From Candidatus Aenigmatarchaeota archaeon (GTDB lineage Archaea; Aenigmatarchaeota; Aenigmatarchaeia; CG10238-14), in contig JAOAJH010000005.1 in the NCBI GenBank assembly GCA_026414305.1, forward strand, positions 1,612 to 65,611: a DNA stretch of 64,000 nucleotides, read 5' to 3'. Shown piece after piece: positions 488 to 50,080 of the stretch; the stretch's first letter is position 1, and the number at the start of each line of letters is the position of its first letter. The notes below the pieces were generated by a model, which worked only from the letters and a program-made list of their open reading frames with translations, was not told the origin of the DNA and did not search any database. The translations under genes and the position numbers were made by a program.

Positions 488-1270
488 ATGAAATATTTTA
501 CATTGTTTATTTTTCTTCTCATACCTTCGGCAATGGCGGGTTATATATCAATTACAACATTTGTTGATGTTGATTTTGTAAGAGATAACAATGCTAGCAT
601 TAATGTTACAATAAAAAACTCTGGCACAGATGAAGCAAGAAATGTAAAAGTAAGTTTGATATCAGATCAATTTAAAATGAGCATCGAAGATATTGGAACA
701 ATATACCCAAATTCAGAAAAATCATTAAGATCAACCGTGTTTGTTGAAAACATTAAAAAAGGGTCTTACATAGCAGCTGTCAAAGTTGAATACAGCGACC
801 AATCAGGCAAAAAGTTTTCAGCGATTACCCCTGTAACTATAGTCTACAAGGAGCCTTCTCTAAGTAGAGTCATCATAGACATTGAAAAAATCAAAATAGA
901 AGAGCAATCTTCATCTTCAGCAAAGGTAAAAATAAAAAACAATGATTTTTATGAGAAAAACATAAACGTTAAAATTTTCCTTCCAATGGAATTTTCTGTT
1001 TATCCTTTGGAAATAAACGAAAATATCCAGCCAGGCAAAGAAACGACAAAAAAGTTTTTAATAAGAAACATGGAAGGAATTGATGGAAGCGAGTACGCTA
1101 TTTTTGCAGCGGTTAATTATGATGATGAAAACTATCATTATTCTCAATATAAAATCAGCACTTTGGAAGTTGTTTCCAAAAAAGCTATAAACTTGCCAAT
1201 TTTGATGGCCATATTCCTTTTATTATTAACTTTAACAATATCATATTTATCAAAAAAGAAAAAGAAATGA
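488..1270 (+). CDS. Secreted protein with two CARDB/DUF11-like beta-sandwich repeats and a C-terminal TM anchor plus poly-Lys tail
   Basis: Signal peptide MKYFTLFIFLLIPSAMA. Two CARDB-like repeats: NASINVTIKNSGTDEARNVKVSLIS and SSAKVKIKNNDFYEKNINVKIFL. C-terminus LPILMAIFLLLLTLTISYLSKKKKK. Confidence 0.5.
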   Translation: MKYFTLFIFLLIPSAMAGYISITTFVDVDFVRDNNASINVTIKNSGTDEARNVKVSLISDQFKMSIEDIGTIYPNSEKSLRSTVFVENIKKGSYIAAVKVEYSDQSGKKFSAITPVTIVYKEPSLSRVIIDIEKIKIEEQSSSSAKVKIKNNDFYEKNINVKIFLPMEFSVYPLEINENIQPGKETTKKFLIRNMEGIDGSEYAIFAAVNYDDENYHYSQYKISTLEVVSKKAINLPILMAIFLLLLTLTISYLSKKKKK

Positions 1271-1656
1271 TAGAAATGAAAAAAGGTGGAAAAATGATAG
1301 TGTTGGTTTGGATTGGATTATGCGTAATGCTAGCAGTTATAGGACAGCTATTCATGAAGCTAGGCACAAAGGAAGTGGGTGGCATAACAATAAAAAAGCT
1401 TGCCTCTACAGAGATATTTTCTCTGCTTTTTAACAGATACATATTTTTAGGCATGATCGCATACTTTTCTGGCTGGCTTTTGTGGCTTGTAGTGCTATCT
1501 CAGGCAGAATTAAGCTATGCATATCCATTTTTTGCATTAAGCTATGCAATAATTGCAATAATATCTTGGTTGTTTTTGAAAGAAACAATGACTTTGGTAA
1601 AGGCTTCAGGAATATTGCTTATAATGGTCGGCGCTATACTGCTAAACTTGAAATAG
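1267..1656 (+). CDS. Small 4-TM membrane protein, SMR/EamA (ArnE/ArnF-like) fold; possible polyprenyl-phosphate-sugar flippase subunit
   Basis: 129 aa with four predicted TM helices. It sits directly upstream of, and is coupled to, GT-C-like genes. The functional link is inference from context. Confidence 0.45.
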   Translation: MIEMKKGGKMIVLVWIGLCVMLAVIGQLFMKLGTKEVGGITIKKLASTEIFSLLFNRYIFLGMIAYFSGWLLWLVVLSQAELSYAYPFFALSYAIIAIISWLFLKETMTLVKASGILLIMVGAILLNLK

Positions 1657-1663
1657 ATCTGAT

Positions 1664-3778
1664 ATGAGTTTGATAAAAAAACTGATTGAAAATAGAGAGG
1701 CAGTAATAGATTTTTCAGTATTAGCTTTGATAACTGTTTTTCTTTTTACATATTTCAAACCAGAGTTTATTTTTTCAGACACAGTCATAAGTGCAGGTGA
1801 CACTGTTGGCCATTATTATGGGGCTTATTTTATGAACAAGCATCTTATACCAAGCCTGAAATTAATAGGATGGAGCAATGACTGGTTTTTGGGCTATCCT
1901 GCATTTCAATTTTACTTTCCCGCCATATTTTTTCTTACAGGAATATTAGGCTACTTGATACCATTGAACATCGCATTTAAAATAGGCACAGTTTTAGGCA
2001 CATTTATGCTCCCTTTTTGTGTTTATTTTGCATTCAAGTTGATGAAATTCAAATTTCCTGTACCAGTGATAGCTTCAACGCTTACTCTCATAACATTATT
2101 CATAGAAAGGGTAGATGAAAACCAAATATATTCTATGTGGGGAGGCAATATACCAAGCACGCTTGCAGGTGAATTTTCATATAGCTTTGCGCTTGCCCTG
2201 TCAATGATTTTTATTGGAACTTTTTATAAAGGCATAAAAACAAAAAAACTTTTGATATTAAACTCGATACTTTTCACAGTAATAATGCTATCCCATTTCT
2301 TTTTTGCAATTTTTGCAGCAATATCAACATTTTTCCACATTTTTGGAATTAAAAAATTCAAACAAAACATTAACTATTGCTTGAAGTTTTATTTTCTTTC
2401 ATTTTTACTCTCATCGTTTTGGCTTTTACCAATGCTACTAAAGGTTTACTACACATCATCCCACGTTTGGTATCCTCCCTCATCAATAAAAGAATACATT
2501 AATATGATTATACCAAAGCCTCTTGTGCCATTTTACATTCTTTCTCTAATTTCTGCAATAATAACTATTGCTAAAAGGGAAAATGAGAACATGATCTTTG
2601 CATTCACTGCAGTTTCATCTCTCTTGCTATTCACAATATCCCCAATTTTAAATAAAGTCGGCTTTCATGGTTTTGATCATTTGCAGCTGATAAAGTTTCT
2701 CCCAATGCTTTATATTTCAATTATCCTTAACATACCTGTTGCTTTTTCATATTTGAAATGGAAAAATTATCTGCTTGTTTTACCTGCCATAGCATTGATT
2801 GCATGCTTCTTATGGGTAGAAAGCCATTCAACCTACATAGACTATTGGATATTTTGGAATTATAGTGGATATGAGGACAAGAGTTTGGGAAAAGAATACT
2901 ACAAAGTAAACGAATTTTTAAAGGGTTTGCCATATGGCAGGGTTGCATACGAGTATGATCCAAAGAAATACGAGTCAACTTTGGGCAGTTCTAGGGCGAC
3001 TGAAACAATACCCATTTTCTCAGGAAAGCCAATAACAGAAGGCACTCATTTTCAGTCATCATTCAACGCACCATATATTTATAGCGCACACTGCGAGTAT
3101 TCTATGGCTTGCTCGTGTGTTTTCGGTCACATGGCAGGTAGATGCCCCTCTTTCAATTTTGATATGGGCGTCGAGCATATGAAGATGTTTGGGGTAAGAT
3201 ACTTTTTTGCGTCTTCAGATAACATAAAAAATATTCTAAGGCAAAGAGATGATTTCCAGCTTCTTTACGGCCCATCTGAATTTGAAATATGGGAATTGAA
3301 ATATGATTATAGCATAATCCAAATACCTGAATATGAGCCAGTTGCCGTCAATTCAAATGATTGGAGAAAAATTTCATATGAATGGTTTTTCAACAAAGAT
3401 AAGATGAAAATACCGCTTATATGGACAAACGAAAATGTCGGGTACAAATCTTATTATGATCCAAACATATATGTAATAGATTCTGTAAAGACAGACTATG
3501 AATGCAGAATTGAAAATGTTGTTGTTGAAAACGAGAAAATAGAGTTTGATACTGATTGCATCGGAAAGCCTCACATAATCAAGGTTTCTTATTTCCCAAA
3601 CTGGAAGGTAAAAGGTGCTGAAAAAATATACATGGTTTCACCTGCATTTATGCTCGTCTATCCAACAGAGAACCATGTAAAGCTTTATTATGGAATGACA
3701 TTTATTGATACAATAGGAATTATATTTAGCTTTATGGGAATATTAATAATATTATTTTCAAAGAGGTTTGGTTTATGA
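1664..3778 (+). CDS. Large polytopic membrane protein of about 12 TM with a ~300-aa C-terminal soluble domain; GT-C-fold glycosyltransferase-like (STT3/YfhO/DUF2079-like architecture, not a canonical AglB)
   Basis: Topology from hydrophobicity. No WWDYG motif was found, so AglB is not called. The TGA stop overlaps the ATG of the next gene (ATGA). Confidence 0.45.
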   Translation: MSLIKKLIENREAVIDFSVLALITVFLFTYFKPEFIFSDTVISAGDTVGHYYGAYFMNKHLIPSLKLIGWSNDWFLGYPAFQFYFPAIFFLTGILGYLIPLNIAFKIGTVLGTFMLPFCVYFAFKLMKFKFPVPVIASTLTLITLFIERVDENQIYSMWGGNIPSTLAGEFSYSFALALSMIFIGTFYKGIKTKKLLILNSILFTVIMLSHFFFAIFAAISTFFHIFGIKKFKQNINYCLKFYFLSFLLSSFWLLPMLLKVYYTSSHVWYPPSSIKEYINMIIPKPLVPFYILSLISAIITIAKRENENMIFAFTAVSSLLLFTISPILNKVGFHGFDHLQLIKFLPMLYISIILNIPVAFSYLKWKNYLLVLPAIALIACFLWVESHSTYIDYWIFWNYSGYEDKSLGKEYYKVNEFLKGLPYGRVAYEYDPKKYESTLGSSRATETIPIFSGKPITEGTHFQSSFNAPYIYSAHCEYSMACSCVFGHMAGRCPSFNFDMGVEHMKMFGVRYFFASSDNIKNILRQRDDFQLLYGPSEFEIWELKYDYSIIQIPEYEPVAVNSNDWRKISYEWFFNKDKMKIPLIWTNENVGYKSYYDPNIYVIDSVKTDYECRIENVVVENEKIEFDTDCIGKPHIIKVSYFPNWKVKGAEKIYMVSPAFMLVYPTENHVKLYYGMTFIDTIGIIFSFMGILIILFSKRFGL

Positions 3779-4827
3779 AAAAGCTGTTTGTCTTTACTTT
3801 TATTTTCATAGTTTTCTTGACAGCTTTGCTAAGATTATACAACCTTGACAACAGGCCGGCTCATTTCGACGAAGGTGGCGGACACGCAATTGGTGTGAGA
3901 ACTCTTATAAATGAAGGTAGATACATTTATGACCCTGACTTTCATGGTCCATTCCTTTATCACATAACTGCTTTAGCATTTATTCTGTTTGGAATGTCTG
4001 ACATAACTTTGAGAGTAACTCAAGCAATATTTGGAATATTAACTGTTGGAATACTTTGGCTTTTAAAAGATCATTTGAAAAAAGATGCATTAATAGCAGC
4101 AGCACTCTTATTGGCAATATCACCCTCGCTTGTCTATTACTCAAGATTTGCAGTCCATGACTCGTATTTTGTTTTCTTTTCAATAGCATTTATAGTGTTT
4201 TTGTTTTTGTATTCAAAAGAAAGAAAAGAAAAATACCTTTATCTAACATCAGCATCCCTAGCATTCTTGTTTACCGTAAAAGAAAATGCATATATTTTTC
4301 TAGCTGTTGTTGGCTTTTGTTTTTTTGTTGAATTTGTAATTGAGAGTATAAGAATAAAAGGAAAATTTTCTAAAAAGATAGCTAAAAACCCATATACTGC
4401 TTGGATAAGACATAATACAAAGCAGCTGGCAATAAGTTTTGTTATTTTTATTGTTATATTTGCTACCATATACACATCATTCTTTAGATATCCACAAAAT
4501 TTCATAATAGCCATTTCAGAACCTTTTAATCATTGGTTGAAAAAATCAACCGAACAAAGCGGTTTTGTTCAACCAGTTGAATTTTATTTCCGAATACTCA
4601 GAGAATATGATACAGCCATATTATTTTTTGGCTTACTTGGAATTATAACACCATTTTTTGCAAACAATAGCTACACTAGATTTGCGTCGATATTTGGATT
4701 TTTGAATTTGATCATATATTTGTTAATGCCTTATAAAGAACCGAACAATATTGTTCATGCTGTGTTACCTTTGGCTATAGCATCTCTTTCATTTTTTGAG
4801 CAGTTGAAAAAGAATATAAAAAAATAG
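3775..4827 (+). CDS. TIGR03663-like / PMT(GT39)-like GT-C membrane protein, membrane portion
   Basis: Loop-1 motif HFDEGGGH resembles the FDE(v)HFG motif of protein O-mannosyltransferases. Multiple TM helices. It ends at an in-frame TAG (4825-4827) and the same frame continues into the 4840-5715 ORF. Confidence 0.5.
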   Translation: MKKLFVFTFIFIVFLTALLRLYNLDNRPAHFDEGGGHAIGVRTLINEGRYIYDPDFHGPFLYHITALAFILFGMSDITLRVTQAIFGILTVGILWLLKDHLKKDALIAAALLLAISPSLVYYSRFAVHDSYFVFFSIAFIVFLFLYSKERKEKYLYLTSASLAFLFTVKENAYIFLAVVGFCFFVEFVIESIRIKGKFSKKIAKNPYTAWIRHNTKQLAISFVIFIVIFATIYTSFFRYPQNFIIAISEPFNHWLKKSTEQSGFVQPVEFYFRILREYDTAILFFGLLGIITPFFANNSYTRFASIFGFLNLIIYLLMPYKEPNNIVHAVLPLAIASLSFFEQLKKNIKK

Positions 4828-4839
4828 TTTAGGGGGATT

Positions 4840-5715
4840 TTGGTTTGGTTGTCATGTGATAGCATTTACATGACTTGGCAAACAAGTTTTGTCAGATATT
4901 CTGATGAAAATAATTATCTTGTTTATGTTCAAACTGTTGATGATATAAAGCCTATGCTTAAATTAATTGACAAAATCACAAGTGAAAGAGGAAGAGACAT
5001 ACCTATATTGGTAAACATACCTGAAACAGAATATCCTCTTTCATGGTATTTCAGAGATTATAGCAATGTCAAATACACCTCAGAAAATATTGAAACGCCC
5101 ATTGGGTGGAAAAATATAAGATGGTCTGGGGATGGAAAAATAATATGGGATGAAAGGGAATATAAAAGCGGGAAGAAAAGCGGGAAAATAGATGGCGGCA
5201 ATGGCACTGACGGGGAGTGGAGGCAAAAAATATCTGTGCAAGGCGGGAGATATTATACAATATCAGGTTGGATAAAAACATCAGATTTGCAGCCTATAAC
5301 TGCTGCTAAGTTTGCTCAACTTTACATAAGAACCGATAGAAATGACGAACCTGACATAATAATAGCTGAAACAGAAAGCCTTACAGGAACAAACAACTGG
5401 ACTTTTGTCCAAAAAAGGTTTTATGTTGATCAAAATGTTAATTTTTTGTGGCTTACTATGCCTATAGGAAATTGGGGTCAAACAAAAGGTCAGGTATGGT
5501 TTGATGACATTGAATTAAGAGCAGAAGGTGACTTTCTCAATCTGATTGAAAATCCAGGATTTGAAGACGGTAAAAAGATATCAGACATAAAAGATTATGA
5601 AATAATGATAATTTCTGAAAGCAATGGTCTGAGCTTCAGCAATTTGGACGGCTATACTTTGAGTAGATATGTTCTAAGACCTGGAGTGAATCTTGTAGTT
5701 TACATAAAAAATTAA
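4840..5715 (+). CDS. Extracytoplasmic domain with CBM4/9-like carbohydrate-binding beta-sandwich; probably the C-terminal part of the upstream GT-C protein
   Basis: Same reading frame as 3775-4827, separated only by TAG plus 4 codons. The track uses a TTG start. Motifs YTISGWIKTSD...VWFDDIELR are typical of CBM_4_9-like domains. Confidence 0.4.
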   Translation: MVWLSCDSIYMTWQTSFVRYSDENNYLVYVQTVDDIKPMLKLIDKITSERGRDIPILVNIPETEYPLSWYFRDYSNVKYTSENIETPIGWKNIRWSGDGKIIWDEREYKSGKKSGKIDGGNGTDGEWRQKISVQGGRYYTISGWIKTSDLQPITAAKFAQLYIRTDRNDEPDIIIAETESLTGTNNWTFVQKRFYVDQNVNFLWLTMPIGNWGQTKGQVWFDDIELRAEGDFLNLIENPGFEDGKKISDIKDYEIMIISESNGLSFSNLDGYTLSRYVLRPGVNLVVYIKN

Positions 5716-10436: not shown

Positions 10437-12496
10437 TGTTTCACCTTGAATATAAAGCTGTCTTCATAAAAATATATGGGGTTACCAAATTTTGTCAAAT
10501 TAGCATTTGGGTATTTTCTTTTCTCAACAGATCCATAAAAAATGTATTTTATATTATATTTATTTATTAGATCGTTTGATAATGTTTCATTGTTTGTTTC
10601 ATATATTATCCTTATATCTTTCATCCTTTCTTCAGGCCATATGCCATGATGGATTCCTACATGATTGTTCCATCCAACCAAAGTTTGCAGACCAGTGTAA
10701 GATGAAAATATAGAAGTATAACTAAAAGCATCACCTGAAGCTTCAAGGATTATCTCATTATTTTTTATATTATTTTTAGCCCATTCAATCAATTTGTAGT
10801 CTTCTATATGATATTCTCTCATATACGATAAACCATCAAGACTAACACCAGAATTTATTCCATAATTTAACCTGTCTATAAATGAAAATATAGTCATAGG
10901 CAAACATAAAATTATTAACAAAATCAGTATTAACATAAATATTCTGTCATTTCTCATATTGTATATTACAAAAACACTCGAGATGGACCAAAAAATCCAT
11001 ATATGATAATAAAATTTGAATACAGTATTATATCTAGAATCTATAAAAAATATTTCTGGTAATAGCATAACCAGAGCTCCGAACAACGTCATAATATGGG
11101 CAAACCTGTTTTTATTGTCTAAAATCAATCTTTTTAATGAAAAAAAAGCTATGGGGAAAATTAAAAATGTAAGCGGGATTCCGCTTAACACGTAAATTAA
11201 GATTGAAAAAATGAAAACAAATATTTTTATTTTAAGGTTTTTTTCAACCTTTAAATAATAATAATAGATTGAAAAAATGAAAATTGGAAAAAGAATCAAC
11301 TCATGAAATATGTTACTTTTTTCATTTGAAAAACCAATCTTTGTAAATTTTGAAACTGTGATTGAGTATGGTAAAGAAAACAACATAAACAAAAGAAATG
11401 TTCCTATTATTGTATAAAAAAGATATGATTTTGATATCCTTTTTTCAAAAAAAACAATAAATACAACAGTTATAAATAATGAAAAATAAACTGGAAAATC
11501 CCAAGAATTTGTTATATAAAGCATTGTTAGAACTAAAGCTACAAAAGCAACATGATTTTTTTCATATTTTTTCATCATAAAAATTGCTAAAAATAAAGAT
11601 ATGGCTAAAATCTGTATAGGTAATGAAATTATATGCGAGTGGACTTCACCGAACATCAAATTTGCAAATGGGAATTCGTTTATTGTATTTGGTATCACTC
11701 TTGTACTGGACCAAACAGGAAATGTAAACAAAAAACTGAAAAAATTTTGATCGGGTTTATGACAACACGTCATTGCATATTCTATGTTGAAATTTTTGCT
11801 AAAAACTTCAACGAGTTTTGGGTTAACAAAAGTAAAAATTTGTAAAAAACCTAAAAGATTAGATAAGAAAATAAACAAGAAAATTCCTATGTAGCTAATT
11901 TTTATACTATTTGTAATGCTGTAGCATATTGTGAAAATACCTACAGCCAAAAGTGAATATATCGTTGCTAAGAAAAGATTGAATGTAATTGTAGATTCTA
12001 AATGACTCATTTTTGTCAAAGTAGCTACAGTGAAATGTCCAAAATAATAATAGTTTATATTATGTCCAGAAAACCATGGGTCTTGTGGTGGCATTTTTTC
12101 GCTTTTTAAAATACCATTTATTAGTGAAATATCAAAAAGCTTTTCCAGACCTTCAACTGCTGGTGTCAATGACCTTATCAAACAAAAAATAATAAATGAA
12201 AGAAGAAAGATTAACTCGATTTTATTAACTATTTTTTTGTCAAAAATAATGTTTACTTTTTTCGCTATGAAGAAATTGACTGATGTAAAAATTATAATTG
12301 AAATTATAATGCTTTTTTCATAACCTATTAGGAAGCTTGAATACCAAGAAACAAAACTTAAAACAAAAATACCAAGTATTTTTGATATTCCATATCCTCT
12401 ATCTTTCAATGATGAAAACAGCACAAATGTTAAAGGAAGAGATATAAAACTGATCAATTCCAACAAAATAAACCAAATCAGCATCTCCAATATCAT
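10433..12496 (-). CDS. Chlor_Arch_YYY (DUF2298-like) polytopic GT-C-like membrane protein, paralog of 5712-7997
   Basis: 687 aa with a YYYFGHF motif. Both ends have 4-nt overlaps with the flanking GT2 genes. Confidence 0.6.
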   Translation of the reverse strand: MILEMLIWFILLELISFISLPLTFVLFSSLKDRGYGISKILGIFVLSFVSWYSSFLIGYEKSIIISIIIFTSVNFFIAKKVNIIFDKKIVNKIELIFLLSFIIFCLIRSLTPAVEGLEKLFDISLINGILKSEKMPPQDPWFSGHNINYYYFGHFTVATLTKMSHLESTITFNLFLATIYSLLAVGIFTICYSITNSIKISYIGIFLFIFLSNLLGFLQIFTFVNPKLVEVFSKNFNIEYAMTCCHKPDQNFFSFLFTFPVWSSTRVIPNTINEFPFANLMFGEVHSHIISLPIQILAISLFLAIFMMKKYEKNHVAFVALVLTMLYITNSWDFPVYFSLFITVVFIVFFEKRISKSYLFYTIIGTFLLFMLFSLPYSITVSKFTKIGFSNEKSNIFHELILFPIFIFSIYYYYLKVEKNLKIKIFVFIFSILIYVLSGIPLTFLIFPIAFFSLKRLILDNKNRFAHIMTLFGALVMLLPEIFFIDSRYNTVFKFYYHIWIFWSISSVFVIYNMRNDRIFMLILILLIILCLPMTIFSFIDRLNYGINSGVSLDGLSYMREYHIEDYKLIEWAKNNIKNNEIILEASGDAFSYTSIFSSYTGLQTLVGWNNHVGIHHGIWPEERMKDIRIIYETNNETLSNDLINKYNIKYIFYGSVEKRKYPNANLTKFGNPIYFYEDSFIFKVKQ

Positions 12497-13191
12497 TGTT
12501 TCAACTCTTTTCTGAGTCTAAAAATGTTTTTCATATAGTTGCTTACGGTCTTCCATATTTTTACAGTCGAGCCTTTGTCTTCAGTCCATTTAACGGGTAT
12601 TTCTTTTAGTTTGTAGCCGAATCTTTGACCCTTGACAAGCAGTTCAGTGTCAAAAAACCATTCGTTGTCTGATATTTTTGGCAAAAGCTCTGTTGCAACT
12701 TTTTTGTTTATAGCCTTGAAACCGCACTGAGCATCCTTGAAATCAACGTTCAAAAATAGCTTCAACAAAAAGTTATAACCTTTTGACAAAACATCTCTTT
12801 TAAAAGACCTTTCTAATTCAGATTCTTTTAGATGTCTTGATCCAAAAGAAATATCATATCCCTTTTCAATTGCATCTGTAAGCTCCTTTAAATGTTTCAA
12901 GTCAGTGGACAAGTCTATATCCATATAGCACATTATATCGGCGTCAGTTGATTGCCAAGCAGTTTTTAGCGCACGGCCTCTTCCCTTTTGTGGTAAATGT
13001 ATATACTTTATCTGTTTGTATTCTTTAGACAGTTTCTTGGCTATATCCAGAGTTGCATCGGTAGAAGCATTGTCTGCTATTAAAATTTCAAAATCCTTGT
13101 AGTTTTTCTTACAAATTTCCAAAACCTTCAAAGCGCTTGATTCAAGCTGTTCTTGCTCATTGTAAACAGGTAAAGTAACGCATACCTTCAT
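12493..13191 (-). CDS. GT2 glycosyltransferase, DPM1-like polyprenol-phosphate hexose synthase
   Basis: LPVYNEQE...ADNASTD...DAQCGFKAINK motifs. Confidence 0.7.
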   Translation of the reverse strand: MKVCVTLPVYNEQEQLESSALKVLEICKKNYKDFEILIADNASTDATLDIAKKLSKEYKQIKYIHLPQKGRGRALKTAWQSTDADIMCYMDIDLSTDLKHLKELTDAIEKGYDISFGSRHLKESELERSFKRDVLSKGYNFLLKLFLNVDFKDAQCGFKAINKKVATELLPKISDNEWFFDTELLVKGQRFGYKLKEIPVKWTEDKGSTVKIWKTVSNYMKNIFRLRKELKQ

Positions 13192-13222
13192 TCAATCAAT
13201 TATATATAAAATAGAAAGATTT

Positions 13223-14521
13223 TTAACTCTTTACATATTTGCTTGCCAGCTCAGCCATTTCAGTACCTATTTTTATGCTCAAGTTTACAGATCTTTCAGG
13301 ATACATGTTAAACAAGCCGCCTATGAAAAATCCTTTAAGGGGGGTTTCATAGTTTAAAAAGTTTTTCTTGAAGCCTTTTTTGTAAATGACGCCTGCATTA
13401 AATCCTTTGAACACTTTGTACCATTTAATGTCGCTTTTTTTGATATCCTGAAATAATTTTTGAAGTTCTGAAAAATATTTCTCCCATATCTGGTCTTCAC
13501 TCATCTGCCATATTGGCGAGTTGTTGCTTGGGTATCTGGCAACATAAAGCAAATACCCATCATAATATTTTAATGGCTGAAAATTTGTATGCTCAATCAG
13601 AGCACCTATCTCAGACTCCTTTACGATGTTTACCCAATAATAATCTGTAAGTTTTCTCTTCATGCTTACAAGTATGCACAAAGATCCTTGATATTCTATT
13701 TTTTCCAACCTTTTGGAGAATTTTTCATCAAACAATCCATAGTTTATGAGGAATTTTGGTGGTATTGTGCTTATTATTGATTTAGATGTTATTGTTTTTT
13801 CACCCATCTTAACAGAATAAAAATTGTTTGACATTGTTATTGCATCAACACTAGAATTAAGAAAAACGTCAACCTTGTTTTTGATAACTCTCTTTTCAAG
13901 TTCATCTAAAAGGACTTTAAAGCCGCCTTTTATGTAACCTAATTTTTCTCCTTTAATGCTTCTTTCACCTCTCATGTTTATTCTTTCTACAAACCATGCA
14001 GCTGATGCTTGCTCTGCCTTGTCGCCAAATTTGCTTTTAAGAAGAGGCTCGAACATTTTTTTGTAAAGACTCCTGCTAGAATTTTTAATTATCCATTCTT
14101 TTGCGGATATGCCGTCAAGCTTTTCATAATCCTTTGAAAGCTTTACAATTATCATAAGCTTTACAAATTGCATTTTCTCTATCATATTCAATGGCTTGAA
14201 AAACAATATGTGCTGAGGCGCAGAAAGCTCGTAAATACCATTGTCAAAAAGAAAGGCTGTTTTGGTGTACTGCCAAACTATCTTTTTTTTCAAGCCAAGC
14301 TCTTTCATTTTCTCCATAAGATAGCTGTCTATTGTAAAAAAGTGATGATAAAATGCTTCTATAAAACTTTTTCCAGACTTTACAGAATACAAAAGGCCGC
14401 CTAAACTAGGACCTTTTTCTATTATAGCTGTTTTTAACCCTTTTTTGGAGCATTCATGAGCTGCCGCAAGCCCTGTAATACCGCCGCCTATGACAATTAC
14501 ATCATAATCCATAAAAATCAA
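13223..14521 (-). CDS. FAD/NAD(P)-binding oxidoreductase (amine-oxidase / phytoene-desaturase-like fold); first gene of the glycosylation operon
   Basis: N-terminal Rossmann motif DVIVIGGGITGLAAA ... IEKGPSLGG. Confidence 0.55.
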   Translation of the reverse strand: MIFMDYDVIVIGGGITGLAAAHECSKKGLKTAIIEKGPSLGGLLYSVKSGKSFIEAFYHHFFTIDSYLMEKMKELGLKKKIVWQYTKTAFLFDNGIYELSAPQHILFFKPLNMIEKMQFVKLMIIVKLSKDYEKLDGISAKEWIIKNSSRSLYKKMFEPLLKSKFGDKAEQASAAWFVERINMRGERSIKGEKLGYIKGGFKVLLDELEKRVIKNKVDVFLNSSVDAITMSNNFYSVKMGEKTITSKSIISTIPPKFLINYGLFDEKFSKRLEKIEYQGSLCILVSMKRKLTDYYWVNIVKESEIGALIEHTNFQPLKYYDGYLLYVARYPSNNSPIWQMSEDQIWEKYFSELQKLFQDIKKSDIKWYKVFKGFNAGVIYKKGFKKNFLNYETPLKGFFIGGLFNMYPERSVNLSIKIGTEMAELASKYVKS

Positions 14522-36901: not shown

Positions 36902-37557
36902 ATAAAAATATGTTTTTCAGCAAAGATATTTTTTGTGAACACTACAATGGTGGAGGAAAACTAATAGTATTTTTTCCAGGATTTCCAAGCATGCCAACAA
37001 CACCAGAATTCATAAATAACAGGATTAACATAATAATGCCAAGGTATCCAGGTAGCTGGGAAAGCAATGGAAAGTTTTCACATAAGAATAATATAAAGCA
37101 AATGATAAATTTGTGCAAATCACTTGAAAATAAAATAATTATTTTATCATGCAGCTACGGCTCTCTTGTTGCCTCAGAAGTTATAAAAAAAATAGGAAAA
37201 ATAGTTGACGTTCATATAATGGTTACGCCTTTTCTTGGATGTAAATTTGATTTGTCAAAGGAAAAAAGCAAAGTTGAAAAATACATGAAAAATGTATATA
37301 GATTTGAAAAATCTTTTGATGACTTTGAAAGAGAAATAACCAATGCTAATGTTAAAATTAGTGGAAAAAATTATGTAATATTATGTTCTCAAGATCAAGA
37401 AATAAACGAATGTTTTTATGATGTTATGAATAAGAGTGATGCTGATATTAAAGTTGATATTGTTCAGGCAAAGCATGGGTATGATGCTAACATTAAATCA
37501 ATGCCACTTATATTGAGGTTTTTGAATGAGTATCAAGGAGATCAAAAAGTTGATTAA
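36898..37557 (+). CDS. Putative alpha/beta-hydrolase-fold protein
   Basis: Possible nucleophile elbow LSCSYGSLVA. Weak call. Confidence 0.3.
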   Translation: MNKNMFFSKDIFCEHYNGGGKLIVFFPGFPSMPTTPEFINNRINIIMPRYPGSWESNGKFSHKNNIKQMINLCKSLENKIIILSCSYGSLVASEVIKKIGKIVDVHIMVTPFLGCKFDLSKEKSKVEKYMKNVYRFEKSFDDFEREITNANVKISGKNYVILCSQDQEINECFYDVMNKSDADIKVDIVQAKHGYDANIKSMPLILRFLNEYQGDQKVD

Positions 37558-38965
37558 AATAAAAAAAATATCAAGAATGAGATCAAGGACAATTTTTAAA
37601 TTATCTGAACTTATCGGATGTGATAGTGAAAATCTAATCACAACAAGTTTTCATCCACGAGCATCAGTAACTAATTCTCATATTACAGAAGTTCTGATTT
37701 TAAATTTAATTTACCAATACACTAACTTAGAGCCAACATTATTTGGTTTTACATTTGACACACCTTATAAAACAGGAGAAAGAAAAGATAGATCTCCCGT
37801 GATAATTCCTTTCGACAATTATTATATAACTTTGAGGTCCCCTAACAAAATAGGAGGTTTTCCTATATCGCTATCTGCATCTTTAACGGAAAATGAAATA
37901 AGCAGAATTAATTTGGAAACCAAAAGAATAATTAGTGAAAATGGGAAATTGTTACAAAAATATCTAGACAATATACAGTTCGGGCATGTTCTGTTTGACT
38001 TGAGAAGACATGGAACGAAAAAACTAATTGAAAAATCTTGTCAGCGATCAGATATAATAAAAAAGATTTATCTCGATTCAGCAAAAAATAGTACAAATTT
38101 GGGTGATTCTATAACCAAAATTAATTTAGGGCTTCTTCATTTCAATAATTTTAGAATTTATGGCATGCCATTTGATTTGATTATTAAAAATTTTCCTGAA
38201 ATAGCAATTAGTTCAGTAAAAATGTATCCTGAACTGTTTCAGCATATATGTTCAGATGCAAAAAGGTATCCGATATATCTATATTCAAACACAATAAAAT
38301 CAGAATGCCCCAATGGTTGCGTTTTTTCAACCGATAATTTTTTGGAAAGCATAGGGAATAATTTTGTTCCAACAGGTCTCATGTGTCTTGTTTTTTTATC
38401 AATATTTTCGGACCACACAATATGTGGGTCATTCATGAAAGATTATTACATTCAAAATTTACCAAAAGCTAGAGAAATAGCTAGAAACCTTGGTTATGAT
38501 ACTGATTTAAAGATAATAACATTTGAAAGAAATAGATGCGTTCAAGCATACGGAACTTATGACATAGTTTCATTTTTAAATACAATGAGCAATTTAGGAA
38601 GAAACTTTTACCTTAACGGATATATTACAATACCAGAGGATGTAGAAGAGCATCAAAAGTGGATTGAAAGCTATATAAAAGAAAAGAAAATAACTGAAAG
38701 AATAAACGATTTTGAAAGAGATAGTGAATTGACAAGACATTTTTTAGGTTTATTCAATAGGTCTATTTCAAGACCAACGCTTTATGAAATGAGCGTATTT
38801 GGTATAAAACCATATTATGATGGTAATATAATAGTTTCTCAAAAAGGCGAATATTGGACATGTAACATTGAAACTGAAAACAAAGCTATCAGTCAAGGTA
38901 AGTATTATTCATATGATACATCGATAATGCAACCTTGTTATTTTCCTCTAGAATTACAAATTTAA
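37526..38965 (+). CDS. Hypothetical protein, 479 aa
   Basis: Long ORF with coding-like composition. No motif recognised. Confidence 0.35.
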   Translation: MSIKEIKKLIKIKKISRMRSRTIFKLSELIGCDSENLITTSFHPRASVTNSHITEVLILNLIYQYTNLEPTLFGFTFDTPYKTGERKDRSPVIIPFDNYYITLRSPNKIGGFPISLSASLTENEISRINLETKRIISENGKLLQKYLDNIQFGHVLFDLRRHGTKKLIEKSCQRSDIIKKIYLDSAKNSTNLGDSITKINLGLLHFNNFRIYGMPFDLIIKNFPEIAISSVKMYPELFQHICSDAKRYPIYLYSNTIKSECPNGCVFSTDNFLESIGNNFVPTGLMCLVFLSIFSDHTICGSFMKDYYIQNLPKAREIARNLGYDTDLKIITFERNRCVQAYGTYDIVSFLNTMSNLGRNFYLNGYITIPEDVEEHQKWIESYIKEKKITERINDFERDSELTRHFLGLFNRSISRPTLYEMSVFGIKPYYDGNIIVSQKGEYWTCNIETENKAISQGKYYSYDTSIMQPCYFPLELQI

Positions 38966-40947
38966 GTAACCAACCAATTCAACAATCTGTTTAAAATTAT
39001 ATTTCCATCTCCTGTTAGCTTTTCAGCTGAGCTTGCGCCAAACCATCCAACATAAGCATAATTTTCAGAAACAAACAAAGTTGATGATGAATGTTGCCCA
39101 GAATCGGCCAAATCTTTCACAGCTGACGAAAGTTGATAGTCAGGTATAACATTGAATTTTGCGTTTGTTATCACATTGACGCTGCCTGAATAGCCTGATG
39201 TTATTTGATCTGCTGTTGTGACATACATGGATTCTGATCTTGTCATTCCAACAAAGCTTCTTGTGTAGCCAAATCTGAATGATGCTTGAGCATAAGGCTG
39301 ATCAGCTATTTCCAAAAATGGAATGCCTTTTTTGTGAGCTGAAAAGGCAGGATGCGAGCCGTCTATTCTACACGCCTTTAATTCATCAGCACATACAATC
39401 AGCTTGTAATTAAGCAGCTCTTGCTCATTCCAAGACCAATAGCCTTTTGACTGCACAGTCCATCCTCTGCTCTCAATCCACTTTATCATGCTGTTTTCTA
39501 TTCCATAATTGCATGAATCATCCCTGCAGATGAATGCAATGTCTTTGTATATTGGAAGGTTTATTGAAAATGTGTATGCATATGTGCTCATTTCATTTCC
39601 ATACATATCCCTGCACTTGACATAAACATAATAAGTTCCGTTTGCCATTTCATAATTGATTTGATATTTGTGCAAAGGCTCATTGTCACTGAAAGCATAT
39701 TCCATTTCATTGAAAGGTTTGTCCTGATTTATTGAAAATCTGCAATAAGACTTTTCGTCTGTAGTTACCACCATAACAGGTCTTCGTGTGTTTATGCTGC
39801 CTTTTGGATAAACAGACAAAACTTGCGGTGGTTGCGAATCGACTTTGTCAGGCGTGCAGCTTGTTGTTCCGCATGCAAGCCAGTGAATTACTCTGTTTGC
39901 TATTATTGATCCTGCATCTGTCAATTCGCTAAAAGTTTTGTCATTAAACCAGCCGATGTAAGCATATCTGTTAGGTTGAGCTATGAACAAGTTTGCATTC
40001 CCATTTGTTGACAGTATTTTCACAGATGATGTAAGCTGATGGTCAGGTATTGCATTGAATCTCGATCCAATCAAAATCTTTTCATTGCTAAAACCATGAG
40101 TTATTTCATCATGAACTGCATTGAATTCATCGCTCGTTGTTGTTCCGATAAAGCTTCTTGTGTAGCCAAATCTGAATGCTGCTTGAGCATATGGGTGGTC
40201 TGCTATTTCCAAAAATGGAATGCCTTTTTTGTGAGCTGAAAAGGCAGGATGCGAGCCGTCTATTCTGCACGACATCAGCTCATCTGCGCATGCAATCAAC
40301 TTGTAATTAAGCAGCTCCTGCTCTGTCCAAGACCAATAGCCTTTTGCGTTCACAACCCATCCGTTTTCAGTTAAAAATTTGATTATTGACTGCTCCAAAC
40401 CATAGTTGCATTGATCTGTTCTGCATATAAAGGCAATGTTTCCAAACCTTTGCCCTCCTTTGAATGTCAAGGTTGTTGAATAAGCGGGATTTCTTCCAAA
40501 CAAATCTTGCTTTGTTATTGCAGAAACGTTCAATGTGTAAACGCCCTCTGGCCAGTCATACAGCCATCTTATTTTTACCGTCATAATTCCAGAAGTGAAA
40601 CCGTATCCATAACCCCAGTTGTTGCCATTGTCATGCATATAGCCGTAGCTTTGATCCAGCTGCGAAAGCTCAACTGAAATGAATCTGCTGTCCTGGCAAA
40701 CTGGGTTGCTGATATCAAACTCGCATGAAGATTGCTCACCGTTGCCAAATATTGTTATGTTTATTTTCTCTATAGGAACCAATTCATCCCCTATGTTTAT
40801 TGCTGTGTTAATGGTTACAACTTCGTTCGGAAAATAAATGTTCTTGTTTGTCCTTGCTTCAATTTCCAAAGCTTTTGAATTTGAAGAAAAAACTAATAGC
40901 AATATTAAAACAGCTGTAAGCGTTAGTGTAAAAGAATTTTTGTTCAT
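38962..40947 (-). CDS. Secreted protein with an N-terminal GYGYG-containing domain and two tandem ~300-aa repeats
   Basis: Signal peptide. Internal duplication IAFICR(T/D)D(Q/S)CNYG(L/I)E...SHPAFSAHKKGIPFLEIAD...RFGYTRSF appears twice. The N-terminal domain is homologous to that of 59668-60939. Confidence 0.55.
   Translation of the reverse strand: MNKNSFTLTLTAVLILLLVFSSNSKALEIEARTNKNIYFPNEVVTINTAINIGDELVPIEKINITIFGNGEQSSCEFDISNPVCQDSRFISVELSQLDQSYGYMHDNGNNWGYGYGFTSGIMTVKIRWLYDWPEGVYTLNVSAITKQDLFGRNPAYSTTLTFKGGQRFGNIAFICRTDQCNYGLEQSIIKFLTENGWVVNAKGYWSWTEQELLNYKLIACADELMSCRIDGSHPAFSAHKKGIPFLEIADHPYAQAAFRFGYTRSFIGTTTSDEFNAVHDEITHGFSNEKILIGSRFNAIPDHQLTSSVKILSTNGNANLFIAQPNRYAYIGWFNDKTFSELTDAGSIIANRVIHWLACGTTSCTPDKVDSQPPQVLSVYPKGSINTRRPVMVVTTDEKSYCRFSINQDKPFNEMEYAFSDNEPLHKYQINYEMANGTYYVYVKCRDMYGNEMSTYAYTFSINLPIYKDIAFICRDDSCNYGIENSMIKWIESRGWTVQSKGYWSWNEQELLNYKLIVCADELKACRIDGSHPAFSAHKKGIPFLEIADQPYAQASFRFGYTRSFVGMTRSESMYVTTADQITSGYSGSVNVITNAKFNVIPDYQLSSAVKDLADSGQHSSSTLFVSENYAYVGWFGASSAEKLTGDGNIILNRLLNWLVT
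39250..39475. repeat. Near-identical DNA core of the intragenic duplication (copy A)
   Basis: About 220 bp almost identical to 40150-40372, e.g. ccaaaaatggaatgccttttttgtgagctgaaaaggcaggatgcgagccgtctattct. Confidence 0.6.
40150..40372. repeat. Near-identical DNA core of the intragenic duplication (copy B)
   Basis: See copy A. The offset is about 900 bp. Confidence 0.6.
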
Positions 40948-45185: not shown

Positions 45186-48089
45186 TCAGCACACATATTC
45201 CATGACTCGGTGAAAATCATCTTCATATGCAGATGCAAAGCAGCTGTTGTTAAATTTTTCCATGTTTTGTATGTTGTTTCTTTGCTTTGCTATGAAAACA
45301 TACAATGGTTTTTCATAAACATCCAAAAGAGGTTTTATCTCGTCAAAGCTGGATGCTGACCAGTATTTTTGCCACTGATCAAAATACCATTTATTGTGCT
45401 CAAATATGCCAGGTGCTATTGCTTTTCTGTCTGAATAGCCTAAAATCCATGGAGAATAATAGCTTGATGGAATAATTATATAGCTGTCTTTCTTTGTTGA
45501 TGCCGAAGCAGTTTTTATTGAATTTATTTCATTTTCATTCAGCAAAGGATTTAATGATGATGCATAACTGAAAGCAAGCCATGCGGATGACAAAATCAAT
45601 ATAATAATTATAAACAATTTCAAGTGATATTGCTTTATTGACAAGATGCTGTGGTAAATGCCTGCTGCGGCCAATATTGTTATTGCGAGATCAAAGTTTG
45701 TGAGAAAGCGGTTGAAGAAAAACAATTCTGCGAATATTATTATGCCTGAAACAAACGCCCATATAAACAGCAGGTTAATTTTCTTCTGCTTAATCATATA
45801 GTGAAAGGCAAATGGCAAATATGCTAGCGAAACGATCCTGAAATATGTTGGAGAGAAAAATGTTCCGCCCGCTGTTGGCGAGGAAATGTTTTTTATCAAT
45901 GATGAAAATGTGTCAATTATTATCATGTTGAATCTCGGCAAGTAAATAATCGTCAATAGAAATGATGTTGTTATCATGCTTTTCAGATAAAATCTTTTTG
46001 TTGCAATGCTGTTTACAATCCACACTATTGCTAAAATGAGAAAGGTCGGTCTGTGATAAAATCCTGTTGCTGTCGCAAAAATAACAGCAAGAAATTGGTT
46101 TTTGTCTATGAAAACAAAAAACAAAAGCATTGTTGTTATTGCTATGATGTTTTTGTAATACATGTAGCTGAATGTTGCCAGCTGTGTGTATGACAATGAG
46201 AATATGATGCATGCTATGGCTGCTATTGTTGGGTTGAAATGTTTTTTTGCAAGCATGTATATTGGGAATATTGAAAGAGATGAGAAAAGGATTAAAAGTG
46301 GGATTAAAAGATGTTCGGTTGAAAAGCCGAAAATGTATAGCAAGTCAGCAAGCACAAACAACCCTTGCTCGTGTGATGACCTTATCCATTTTTCAAGCTG
46401 TTGTTCTGGAATGTCAGGAAGGCTTGCCATGTATTTTTCAAAGACATATTTGTATATGCCTGTGTCATATCCTAGCGGTATGTGGTTGCTAATATAAGGA
46501 ATTGATCTTAATGCTATTGCTATGAAAAATGAGATTGCAACTAGCGCGTAAACATGACCTTTGGATAAATTGAATTTGGATTTTTCATTGAATAATATCA
46601 ATCCTGCTGCAACAGCGGGGATGAAGATTAGCGCAAATATGTTTTGAAATATTTTTGGTGAAAGTATTGATGCTAGCAAAACTGCTGCTGCGTAAAGCAA
46701 CAAAACAATCTTTGCAGCAATTTGTAAATTGATTTTTGGAGGTTTTGGGATGTTAAAAATTTTCAGCCATATCAAAACGCCAAAGTATGCTGTTAAAGCT
46801 ATTCCATATTTTACAGGCAGCAACAGCAAATCTACTTTGATGATCAATGATAATGAAAGCATAAGTGCTGAAGCGACTAAAAATTTAAAGAAAAGATTAA
46901 GACTGAATATTTTGTAAAGCTTTCTTGTTGATGCAAAGCTTGCGGCAAAACCGAACAATGCTGAAAGTAGTGTTGCAAAAGCTGCACCTTTTATGTCATA
47001 TATTGGTATTAGCAAGTGATTCAGCAACACAGACAAAAGTATGATTGCTATTCCTATCAGTGCTGTTGTCTTTTGCTTGTAAACAGCGTTCAGTATTGTG
47101 TTGAAAAATGCGAACAATGTGAAGATGCTGTAAGCCAATATCAATATTGCCAAAGGCTGCGATGCCTGCTGGTAGGAAGATGGATAAAACACTTTCACTA
47201 TTGATGATGCGTCTGCAAATATTGCTATTGTTATCGGTATCAGAATGATCATCAGATATTTAAGAGATTTTTTTATGTGGGTTTCGCTCTGCTTGTCGTT
47301 TGAAGAAACCAAAGGAAAGATGACTGTGCTAAAGCCTGCTAGCAGAAAAGTTGGTATTTTTGCTATGTTCAAAGCCGCTGTGTAATATCCTGCTTTTGCT
47401 GGATCCTGAGTTATTCTTTGAAGCAACAGCAAATCAACTGACTGGAAAAGAGTTATAAGCAAGCTGTAAATTGTTATTGGTATTGCATATTCAATTATTC
47501 TTTTCATTGGAGTGTTGCCTTTGTTTGAGATTGATCTGGAAGCTATGGCTATGCCAGCTAAAGCTGCAATGGCATATCCTATTATAGCGCCTTTCAAGGA
47601 AAAGAAAAAGGCTAGGGCAAAAACAGATGCTATTTTTGCTATTGAGTATGCGATTGAGGCAAAAGATTGCTGCTTGAAAAGCTTTCTTCCGTTCAAATGG
47701 GATGTTGTTACTGCGTAAACAGCATACAAAGGAAAGACTAGGGCAGATATTGGTATGTATGCCTTCAGTTGATCGTTTTTAAGGAATGATGATATCTGGC
47801 TTGACAAGGCTATGTATAATGCTGAAATTATTATTGAGATGGAAAGCTGGAATAGAATTATCTTTTTTATTGCTATCTGCTTTTCTGAGGTGAATTTTGA
47901 TGTCGCAGCGGCTATGCCTGATGTCAGCAGAATGTTGATGGTTGACTGGAAAGCGAGTATTATGCCCAGCATACCATAAAGGCTTGGGTCAAGCATTCTT
48001 GCCAAGCCAAAGTGGATGACATAGCCTGAAAGAATGAAGACTATTTGGGCTATTGTTATGTAAGCAGTGTTTTTTATGAGATCGTTCAT
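45186..48089 (-). CDS. 967-aa fusion of an N-terminal MOP/Wzx-like oligosaccharide flippase domain (about 12 TM) and a C-terminal polytopic membrane domain (polymerase- or GT-C-like)
   Basis: The N-terminal ~480 aa has Wzx-like topology and composition. A second block of about 10 TM helices plus a soluble C-terminus follows. Confidence 0.55.
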   Translation of the reverse strand: MNDLIKNTAYITIAQIVFILSGYVIHFGLARMLDPSLYGMLGIILAFQSTINILLTSGIAAATSKFTSEKQIAIKKIILFQLSISIIISALYIALSSQISSFLKNDQLKAYIPISALVFPLYAVYAVTTSHLNGRKLFKQQSFASIAYSIAKIASVFALAFFFSLKGAIIGYAIAALAGIAIASRSISNKGNTPMKRIIEYAIPITIYSLLITLFQSVDLLLLQRITQDPAKAGYYTAALNIAKIPTFLLAGFSTVIFPLVSSNDKQSETHIKKSLKYLMIILIPITIAIFADASSIVKVFYPSSYQQASQPLAILILAYSIFTLFAFFNTILNAVYKQKTTALIGIAIILLSVLLNHLLIPIYDIKGAAFATLLSALFGFAASFASTRKLYKIFSLNLFFKFLVASALMLSLSLIIKVDLLLLPVKYGIALTAYFGVLIWLKIFNIPKPPKINLQIAAKIVLLLYAAAVLLASILSPKIFQNIFALIFIPAVAAGLILFNEKSKFNLSKGHVYALVAISFFIAIALRSIPYISNHIPLGYDTGIYKYVFEKYMASLPDIPEQQLEKWIRSSHEQGLFVLADLLYIFGFSTEHLLIPLLILFSSLSIFPIYMLAKKHFNPTIAAIACIIFSLSYTQLATFSYMYYKNIIAITTMLLFFVFIDKNQFLAVIFATATGFYHRPTFLILAIVWIVNSIATKRFYLKSMITTSFLLTIIYLPRFNMIIIDTFSSLIKNISSPTAGGTFFSPTYFRIVSLAYLPFAFHYMIKQKKINLLFIWAFVSGIIIFAELFFFNRFLTNFDLAITILAAAGIYHSILSIKQYHLKLFIIIILILSSAWLAFSYASSLNPLLNENEINSIKTASASTKKDSYIIIPSSYYSPWILGYSDRKAIAPGIFEHNKWYFDQWQKYWSASSFDEIKPLLDVYEKPLYVFIAKQRNNIQNMEKFNNSCFASAYEDDFHRVMEYVC

Positions 48090-49057: not shown

Positions 49058-50080
49058 ATGGCATACAAGTACAAGCCTAAAACGCAAACAAACAAAGCTG
49101 TTTTAATTGGTATTGCTATCACTGCTTTTGTTATTGGATTGCTGCTTTTGCTTCCTGGCAAAGATGAAAGGCCTCTGGAAGTAAGGTTGCAAGAGTATTT
49201 GATGAAAAAAGTTCCTAGGAATGCTACTGTTGCTGTTGAAGGTGTTGATCCTGCTGTACTTGATAAAATTGAAAGGCCGATTGTTTGGCTTGCTAATTAT
49301 ACACCTTCGAAAGAACCGATTGATTTGAATGTCACTATAAGAGGCAGCCATAAATTATGGGTATATTTGGCTGATGGTGAAGATTTGGAATTGAATTTGT
49401 CAAAACAGGACTTGAATTGGTATAATGGAACTGATGTTTTGAGGATTGAAGTTTACAATCCGGATTTGAAGTTGGTTTATAATTATAGCATTGAGGATGA
49501 TGGTATTGATGTTGTTGAAAAGCAGTTTGATCCAAAGATGCTTGGAAAAGAGCAGTTTCATAGGGTTTTTGTAAAGAATAAAGGGCAAGGGGCATATAAA
49601 ATATTGTTGATTTCTCAAGCTAAAGGAGATGATTTTTATATTCATTTAAAGTCGACAATGCAGAATAAGATGGTATTTCAGGATAAAATTTATATTTATC
49701 TCTATGATAATTTTTGGTTTAATTGTTTAAAATATAATTGTAATCTAAATTTTATGACTTATCATAATAGTAGTTTACAAAATTTTAATATAATATGTAC
49801 AAAAAACAATTATACAATAAGTTTAAATCAAACTAACAAAATTTTCAATTTTACCACAAAAAATGATGAAAATAATTGTAAATTTTCTAAAATTGAAAAC
49901 CACAAATCATCAGAAAAACAAAAAACAAGTTTAATTTTTAGTTCAAATAAAATTTCTTTTTTTATATATCAAAATTCATTTTTCTATCCATATTCTATAG
50001 TTAACAAAAATTCTGATTATTTGGTTATTTTTAAAGAAAATAAAATTTTTCAGGTGAAAAATATTGAAAAAAAATATTGA
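49058..50080 (+). CDS. Membrane-anchored protein whose ORF runs across a compositional junction; the C-terminal third is a low-complexity Asn/Lys/Ile tail
   Basis: Residues 1-210 have normal composition (signal/TM, beta-rich). From about nt 49685 the DNA becomes extremely AT-rich and the translation is low-complexity. The real gene probably ended or was truncated near 49685. Confidence 0.4.
   Translation: MAYKYKPKTQTNKAVLIGIAITAFVIGLLLLLPGKDERPLEVRLQEYLMKKVPRNATVAVEGVDPAVLDKIERPIVWLANYTPSKEPIDLNVTIRGSHKLWVYLADGEDLELNLSKQDLNWYNGTDVLRIEVYNPDLKLVYNYSIEDDGIDVVEKQFDPKMLGKEQFHRVFVKNKGQGAYKILLISQAKGDDFYIHLKSTMQNKMVFQDKIYIYLYDNFWFNCLKYNCNLNFMTYHNSSLQNFNIICTKNNYTISLNQTNKIFNFTTKNDENNCKFSKIENHKSSEKQKTSLIFSSNKISFFIYQNSFFYPYSIVNKNSDYLVIFKENKIFQVKNIEKKY

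Follow-up and report, generated by a model that had tools for sequence, protein, structure and literature searches.

An Agl23-family (TIGR03663) gene interrupted by an in-frame TAG within a probable surface-glycosylation cluster of an Aenigmatarchaeota archaeon

The NCBIfam family TIGR03663, named "flippase activity-associated protein Agl23," is defined by a profile of 435 positions with a cut-off of 126.25 bits, and we take Agl23 of Haloarcula hispanica (HhAgl23) to be its founding characterised member. A role as hexose-P-dolichol flippase has been proposed for HhAgl23, and translocation of a lipid-linked oligosaccharide by the purified protein was demonstrated in liposomes (PMC11182771; for this activity see also Lu et al., 2020, as cited in PMC11182771). 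Examples of archaeal genes with interrupted coding sequences are Sulfolobus fucA1, which has a programmed -1 frameshift, and aIF1/SUI1, where an apparent frameshift was removed by resequencing; broken genes as such are an ordinary finding in archaeal genomes (PMC8211752). Here, we report the analysis of a 64-kb stretch of DNA from Candidatus Aenigmatarchaeota archaeon (contig JAOAJH010000005.1; hereafter, the window; 32.6% GC), in which, judging from sequence comparison, positions 3775–5715 are one TIGR03663 (Agl23)-family gene of 646 codons for a GT-C-fold membrane protein, interrupted by an in-frame TAG. The gene adds an interrupted member to a known family, and its interruption reflects ordinary gene breakage or an error in the assembly, with no new coding trick.

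Evidence that the two open reading frames (ORFs) flanking the TAG are parts of one gene comes, firstly, from the family profile. The upstream piece matches TIGR03663 above the cut-off (241.6 bits, profile positions 4–334); the downstream piece taken alone stays below it (25.7 bits, positions 365–433); and the joined translation yields a single match above the cut-off, at 278.6 bits over positions 4–433 of 435. As encoded, no single polypeptide spans the whole profile, the TAG splitting its coverage. The upstream piece also exceeds the Pfam cut-offs for PMT_2 (56.2 bits; cut-off 26.1) and PMT (48.1 bits; cut-off 22.7), and carries the conserved loop-1 motif HFDEGGG, in which D32 and E33 are nearly invariant across the aligned relatives.

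Secondly, a search of 5.8 billion proteins returned 19 full-length relatives, mostly from metagenome-assembled genomes (MAGs) of Aenigmatarchaeota, each of which is a single protein of 644–664 aa that aligns end to end with the joined query (40–76% identity, 97–100% coverage). The single profile match of the joined translation together with these end-to-end alignments places the link between the pieces far beyond chance. The initial annotation had seen here one GT-C protein in two pieces, to be checked for co-linearity with full-length TIGR03663 homologues. This proposal is upheld, as the full-length homologues are all single proteins of that length, never a pair of genes, and a separate signal peptide is lacking from the downstream piece. 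On the contigs of four relatives, the gene order is EamA (120–126 aa), a 695–700-aa gene, and a single TIGR03663 gene of 644–646 aa, and the ATGA overlap leading into the latter is kept. The TIGR03663 copy on one relative contig (L001) runs off the contig end at 629 aa. In a library of 1.84 billion proteins, the full-length matches to the downstream piece were all C-termini of proteins of about 650–670 aa, fragments, or genes cut by a contig end. The only apparently stand-alone C-terminal protein (P0244, 293 aa) was rejected: just 20 nt separate its start from the end of a 1351-bp contig, and the reading frame stays open up to that end. The single gene of 646 codons is the ancestral, functional form under every explanation weighed below.

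Direct reading of the sequence bears out the ORF coordinates given initially, as well as the ATGA at 3775–3778 (the stop of the 704-aa gene overlapping the start of the TIGR03663 gene), the shared frame, and the separation of the pieces by the TAG plus four codons. After the TAG, the sequence reads TTT AGG GGG ATT and then TTG 4840, in a single frame throughout (Table 1). The further statement that the downstream piece lacks an ATG start holds for its first ten codons only, as additional in-frame starts are present at TTG 4849 and ATG 4870. Public annotation already treats the locus as two genes: the 704-aa protein MCX8178879.1 (N3D75_03570) is followed by MCX8178880.1 (350 aa, "TIGR03663 family protein"), MCX8178881.1 (291 aa, "hypothetical protein"; N3D75_03580), and the DUF2298 protein MCX8178882.1. 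All four are encoded on a contig of 73,110 bp and are singleton clusters, confined to this MAG, in a collection of 15 billion proteins. MCX8178880.1 and MCX8178881.1 should be regarded as fragments of one interrupted Agl23-family gene, not as a short Agl23 and a novel soluble protein.

Table 1. Coordinates of the features of the interrupted gene and its upstream neighbours in the window.
Feature	Positions	Strand	Description
EamA/DMT-type gene	1267–1656	+	129-aa ORF, longest start
PTPS_related (PF10131) family gene (predicted)	1664–3778	+	704 aa, polytopic membrane protein
TIGR03663/Agl23 gene, upstream piece, codons 1–350	3775–4824 (ORF with stop 3775–4827)	+	350 aa
In-frame TAG, codon 351	4825–4827	+	direct reading of the sequence
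Codons for the last transmembrane helix (TM11), substitution patch	4828–4872	+	15 codons
AGGGGGA, Shine-Dalgarno-like motif	4831–4837	+	
Downstream piece, TTG start	4840–5715	+	291 aa; rest of TM11, C-terminal alpha/beta domain and beta-sandwich
9-bp hairpin GUCAUGUGA / UUACAUGAC	4851–4874	+	encloses ATG 4870
CBM-like beta-sandwich (predicted), insert in the C-terminal domain	5107–5517	+	approximately residues 446–582 of the model of homologue P0004

An AlphaFold (AF2) model was made of a homologue that is 67% identical to the window protein (P0004; pLDDT 93.2, pTM 0.87). It contains eleven long membrane helices, the last at residues 347–374, followed by an alpha/beta domain with the beta-sandwich inserted in it. 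The top match among solved structures is ArnT (5f15, E 3.4e-8), and next come STT3, Pmt4, ALG9/12, and Emb proteins. The stop codon corresponds to the cytoplasmic start of TM11, just past the Lys-rich KKNIKK loop that follows the tenth helix, and the break is located inside the TIGR03663 core, the downstream piece still belonging to the profile (365–433) for its first ~77 residues. The locus had been described at first as a membrane half and a CBM half separated by the TAG; the two co-linear pieces are there, but the break falls within the membrane core, before its last helix. Since the protein is ArnT-like and its helices are odd in number, its C-terminal domain would be expected outside the cytoplasm.

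Foldseek matched the beta-sandwich of the same model to carbohydrate-binding modules (CBMs) of families CBM16, CBM61, CBM4, and CBM22 (E 5e-5 to 5e-4, TM-score on target 0.55–0.70). The Pfam profile CBM_4_9 reaches 20.8 bits (E 5.5e-4), under its cut-off of 25.9. A CBM4/9-like beta-sandwich, as originally suggested, is thus upheld at the level of fold, through the homologue's model, while the sequence match falls below the Pfam cut-off. The model supports a CBM-like jelly-roll fold for this domain. Domains of this sandwich type recur, often in multiple copies, in several hundred multidomain proteins of up to ~2000 aa (698 matches in total at E ≤0.001, including hits P0247–P0392), and are a widespread module, not one specific to the family.

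In the alignment column of the TAG, 10 of 13 close homologues have Tyr, and Glu or Lys also occurs among homologues; at the DNA level, TAT was read in all four relatives. A single T-to-G change explains the stop. The codons that follow are also atypical, namely AGG (R353), GGG (G354), TGG (W358), TGT (C361), GAT (D362), and ATG (M366). Residues that are unseen in the 13 homologues and negatively scored number 33, of which six are in codons 351–362. Of the nine radical positions (mean BLOSUM ≤-2), five belong to this patch (the stop, R353, G354, W358, and D362), C361 and M366 being likewise unusual; just three radical positions, scattered, were found in the neighbouring 704-aa gene. The best Kyte-Doolittle 19-mer of the last helix scores 0.96 in the window compared with 1.86 in the orthologue P0001, and by this sequence measure the helix has lost its hydrophobicity through the patch.

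Within the patch, six of the seven changes that can be inferred go to G, vs. 20 of 51 elsewhere in the gene. Single-base paths are TAT>TAG, GTG>GGG, TTG>TGG, TAT>GAT, and ATH>ATG, with TTT>TGT (C361) added from a comparison of codons by eye. One of only four GGGGG loci on the + strand of the 64 kb lies within the AGGGGGA of the patch. The RNA of positions 4800–4920 folds with -24.5 kcal/mol (z -2.16; an equally good fold was reached by 7 of 200 shuffled sequences). The stem of the hairpin, which begins 24 nt past the stop, holds three derived G's of the patch, and the orthologous sequence on contig L001 has no such complementarity.

Selection was assessed by comparison with the closest orthologue (protein P0001 on contig L001), for which dS (synonymous divergence) is saturated and dN (nonsynonymous divergence) alone is informative. 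The upstream piece shows 69.6% identity and dN 0.196, the downstream piece 83.5% and 0.111, and the 704-aa neighbour 73.3% and 0.181. Relaxed selection across the gene was not seen, and neither piece contains a second stop or a frameshift. Since the downstream 885 nt hold no comparable damage, the patch was not built up by gradual neutral drift. Given the strong constraint on both pieces, the lesion, if real, is very recent or a single complex event. Three options are left: the lesion is recent and complex, or it is an artefact, or the patch is under local selection together with a functional downstream piece.

We tentatively prefer, with a confidence just short of even, the reading in which the gene was broken by a real, recent, local, unprogrammed, and lineage-specific lesion. 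The change of TAT to TAG at codon 351 would have come with about eight more substitutions in the next 46 nt, which put Arg, Gly, Trp, Cys, and Asp into the helix. Translation would end at the TAG, giving a ten-helix core of 350 residues that retains the loop-1 acidic motif. The C-terminal domain would either be unmade or be made from TTG 4840, TTG 4849, or ATG 4870, in which case it would have no working anchor and would stay in the cytoplasm. Functional overlap among the four GT-C-type genes of the cluster may make the loss tolerable. One hallmark of a nonsense pseudogene is present, i.e., the stop is premature and lineage-specific, and the orthologues have a sense codon one base away. The site is also interior to a 73-kb contig, which would speak against very low coverage, and we infer a natural lesion in preference to an error of assembly.

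Several observations weigh against a natural lesion. The searched collections contained neither reads nor a second sampling of the species, and hence an assembly error still has a substantial chance: look-ups of the exact proteins gave no contig, genome contigs gave only a 76% relative, and metagenome contigs gave nothing. The closest relative by the 704-aa gene (P0122, 81% identical) is encoded on a contig (L007) that stops short of the break site. The derived bases are nearly all G, the GGGGG run included, in a genome of 32.6% GC, and this bias looks more like a base-calling artefact than like natural mutation. Moreover, outside the patch both pieces are strongly constrained, as the dN values set beside that of the 704-aa neighbour demonstrate.

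An artefact of assembly or base calling is accordingly a serious contender, to which we assign a substantial chance, though one clearly below even. The organism would possess an intact 646-codon gene, and the assembly a poorly supported path with G-biased miscalls at approximately 4825–4875. The excess of changes to G and the rare GGGGG run are what such miscalls would produce. The anomaly is limited to ~46 nt, the rest of both pieces being conserved and free of other defects; the radical positions of the 704-aa neighbour are few and scattered, and the remaining syntenic genes match the lengths of their orthologues. Illumina errors are biased towards T>G and A>C, and miscalls near inverted repeats can be consecutive (PMC3141275), a context that the inverted repeat at 4851–4874 would provide. 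The status of both pieces as singleton clusters points in the same direction. On the other hand, erroneous low-coverage paths would normally be removed from the interior of a contig of this size, and the patch is in frame, without an indel. The dephasing signature, in which the miscalled base equals the preceding base (PMC3141275), does not fit TAT>TAG, and the AGG GGG hexamer requires about five changes in 6 nt.

It is improbable, in our judgement, that the gene has undergone a functional split, in which a new ribosome-binding site, AGGGGGA, and the start TTG 4840 evolved to give two translationally coupled, cooperating proteins. The location of a Shine-Dalgarno-like motif directly past the stop is suggestive, the chance of one in the 20 nt before a start being ~0.013 (strict 6-mers of this kind have a density of about one per 1.5 kb on each strand), and the motif resembles real ones in the window, e.g., AGGGGATT ahead of the gene at 36898. 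The better conservation of the C-terminal piece would fit continued selection if the patch accrued gradually, and the public record lists two proteins. However, operon-internal genes in the window have GGTGA or GGGGA placed 4–6 nt ahead of the start codon, and AGGGGGA, at 2–3 nt from TTG 4840 and 11 nt from TTG 4849, is outside this range. The resulting N-terminus, MVWLSCDSIYMTW, lacks a charged n-region, includes an Asp, and is not hydrophobic enough to anchor or export a domain that the GT-C/ArnT architecture would lead one to expect outside the cell. None of the relatives has two genes.

A regulated role of UAG 351, with low-level readthrough (e.g., by tRNA-Tyr) or termination-reinitiation at AGGGGGA/TTG setting the ratio of the core to a CBM-carrying form or partner, is in our view very improbable; if true, it would be a case of programmed stop-codon recoding in Archaea outside selenocysteine (Sec) and pyrrolysine (Pyl). 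The stop as such is of wider interest only if it is real and a junction-spanning or reinitiated product exists.

Programmed decoding of the UAG by pyrrolysine, a near-cognate tRNA, or a suppressor tRNA, giving some full-length protein in addition to the truncated one, appears extremely unlikely. The stop does replace a Tyr codon, for which a near-cognate tRNA-Tyr would restore the ancestral residue, the hairpin follows at the distance given above, and some archaeal lineages read UAG as pyrrolysine (PMC8211752). Yet the homologues have TAT and no conserved TAG at the site, readthrough in Archaea has been shown for Sec and Pyl only (PMC8211752), and even with readthrough, the last helix of the product would contain R353, G354, and D362. 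The 64-kb window contains no tRNA gene and no Rfam element, and no Pyl-related family was matched by the ORFs scanned within it. Genome-wide reassignment of TAG was rejected, as TAG ends 10 of 56 long ORFs of the window and three syntenic TAG-ended genes (EamA, a 169-aa gene, and a 372-aa GT4 gene) match the lengths of their orthologues.

Other origins of the patch were considered and rejected. In the case of a compensated pair of frameshifts, the other two frames hold stops and no family similarity, the in-frame residues I, L, L, S, S, I, and Y are in register, and the segment has 15 codons, as in the relatives. A repeat, a mobile segment, or gene conversion within the window does not agree with the uniqueness of the 24-mer 4825–4848, which persists even with three mismatches allowed; no meaningful repeats were found in 4600–5100. 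Template switching at a quasi-palindrome would, by copying one arm from the other, predict changes that are not seen, and the hairpin misses the TAG and AGGGGG.

The first gene of the conserved trio encodes a protein with four hydrophobic helices. It passes the Pfam threshold for EamA (35.4 bits; cut-off 28.2); among NCBIfam models, ArnF matches best but stays under its cut-off (52.3 bits; cut-off 99), and ArnE is likewise below (25.6 bits; cut-off 92). This agrees with the initial view of an SMR-like gene for a 4-TM protein reminiscent of ArnE/ArnF, and the profile scores indicate a small DMT-superfamily protein that resembles ArnF and is not its orthologue. Translation may start at 1267, with an ATGA overlap with the upstream CARDB-domain gene, or at 1294, which gives 120 aa and is preceded by a GGTGG Shine-Dalgarno motif; the latter agrees better with the orthologues of 120 aa. 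Annotations of the relatives differ, giving either 126 aa with the overlap or 120 aa. The gene ends in a genuine TAG stop (1654–1656).

The 704-aa protein has no direct match in Pfam, even at E up to 1, or in NCBIfam, and a sequence search of the PDB with its family profile found nothing. The homologue P0131, which shares 55% identity with it across 99% of the query, matches PF10131 at 99.9 bits, which by transitivity would assign the window protein to the PTPS_related family. An AF2 model of the protein itself (pLDDT 92.4, pTM 0.91) has as its top PDB matches in Foldseek exclusively GT-C proteins, namely AftD, STT3, PglB, AftA, ArnT, and AglB. The model thus predicts a GT-C fold with a soluble C-terminal domain, in accord with the earlier description of the protein as GT-C-like. 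Its alignment to TIGR03663 by hhalign is weakly positive (probability 62.6%, E 7e-5), the GDT motif being aligned to the DE motif. The protein possesses an extra terminal transmembrane helix (residues 680–697, window 3700–3775), which gives the soluble domain a membrane tether on either side. One of its homologues (P0177, 1205 aa, from a Logan assembly) combines PF10131 (83–544) and PMT_2 (850–986) in one polypeptide, and this fusion supports a functional link between the two adjoining genes.

Past the TIGR03663 gene, the cluster in two relatives (contigs L003 and L005) continues with DUF2298, carbamoyltransferase, GT2, DUF2298, GT2, and FAD oxidoreductase genes. In the window, the convergent neighbours encode two DUF2298/Chlor_Arch_YYY proteins, two GT2 proteins, and a carbamoyltransferase that is NodU-like. 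Among the best matches of the GT2 proteins, all sub-threshold, are AglJ, polyprenyl-phosphate sugar synthases, and a dolichyl-phosphate hexose transferase. The four GT-C-type genes of the cluster are the PTPS_related gene, the Agl23-like gene, and the two DUF2298 genes. In another relative (L006), a second PMT_2 gene (499 aa, 11949–13448) is located directly past the TIGR03663 gene, in place of the pair of DUF2298 and carbamoyltransferase genes, so that the GT-C gene content of the cluster varies between lineages.

From this gene content we infer that the interrupted gene belongs to a conserved surface-glycosylation cluster of Aenigmatarchaeota. Going by what is known of the families, the GT2 enzymes would load sugars onto dolichyl phosphate at the cytoplasmic face, and the lipid-linked sugar would be moved to the outer face by the small EamA protein, by the Agl23-like protein, or by the two together. 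There, the GT-C-fold proteins would pass the sugars to surface proteins or polysaccharide, and the CBM-like sandwich would hold the acceptor glycan. Conserved but uncharacterised, the cluster is a reasonable starting point for studies of surface glycosylation in DPANN archaea.

Elsewhere in the window, an ORF of 967 aa on the minus strand (45186–48089) has a Polysacc_synt (MOP/Wzx-type) flippase domain in its first ~310 residues and no Pfam match in the remaining ~650. It is close to three GT4 genes (51680–55224), and may form with them a second glycan-export locus. Long ORFs of 479, 661, 340, and 539 aa (37526–40947 and 49058–51683) lack any Pfam match at E ≤1e-5.

Comparison with known systems places the gene as follows. 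With HhAgl23 it shares the NCBIfam family, as a joined protein, and the PMT_2-type GT-C core. Moreover, HhAgl23 was studied together with Agl22, and the window gene is clustered with GT2 genes that resemble dolichyl-phosphate-hexose synthases. In contrast to haloarchaeal Agl23, to which its identity is ~24% over ~66% of the length, the gene is interrupted by the TAG, and unlike the shorter homologues (~460–540 aa, matching only the first two thirds), it has the CBM-like insert that these appear to lack.

The second parallel is ArnT, the bacterial aminoarabinose transferase of lipid A, with its partner ArnE/ArnF, a flippase for the undecaprenyl-phosphate sugar. ArnT is the best solved-structure match of the modelled homologue, ArnF is the best NCBIfam match of the neighbouring 4-TM protein, and the arrangement follows the same logic, with a candidate small DMT-type flippase beside a GT-C enzyme that would use a polyprenyl-phosphate sugar. 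The differences are that the 4-TM protein is no equivalog of ArnE/ArnF by score, and that the window adds a PTPS_related GT-C gene and the CBM-like insert. In an archaeal host, one would expect carriers of the dolichol type and, as acceptor, a surface protein or polysaccharide, not lipid A.

Finally, as in fucA1 and aIF1/SUI1, two ORFs are co-linear with one protein, and recoding, a pseudogene, and sequencing error compete as explanations. Unlike those genes, the window gene has an in-frame stop, with no frameshift and no slippery site, and unlike programmed events, its stop is accompanied by damaging substitutions that programming would not need.

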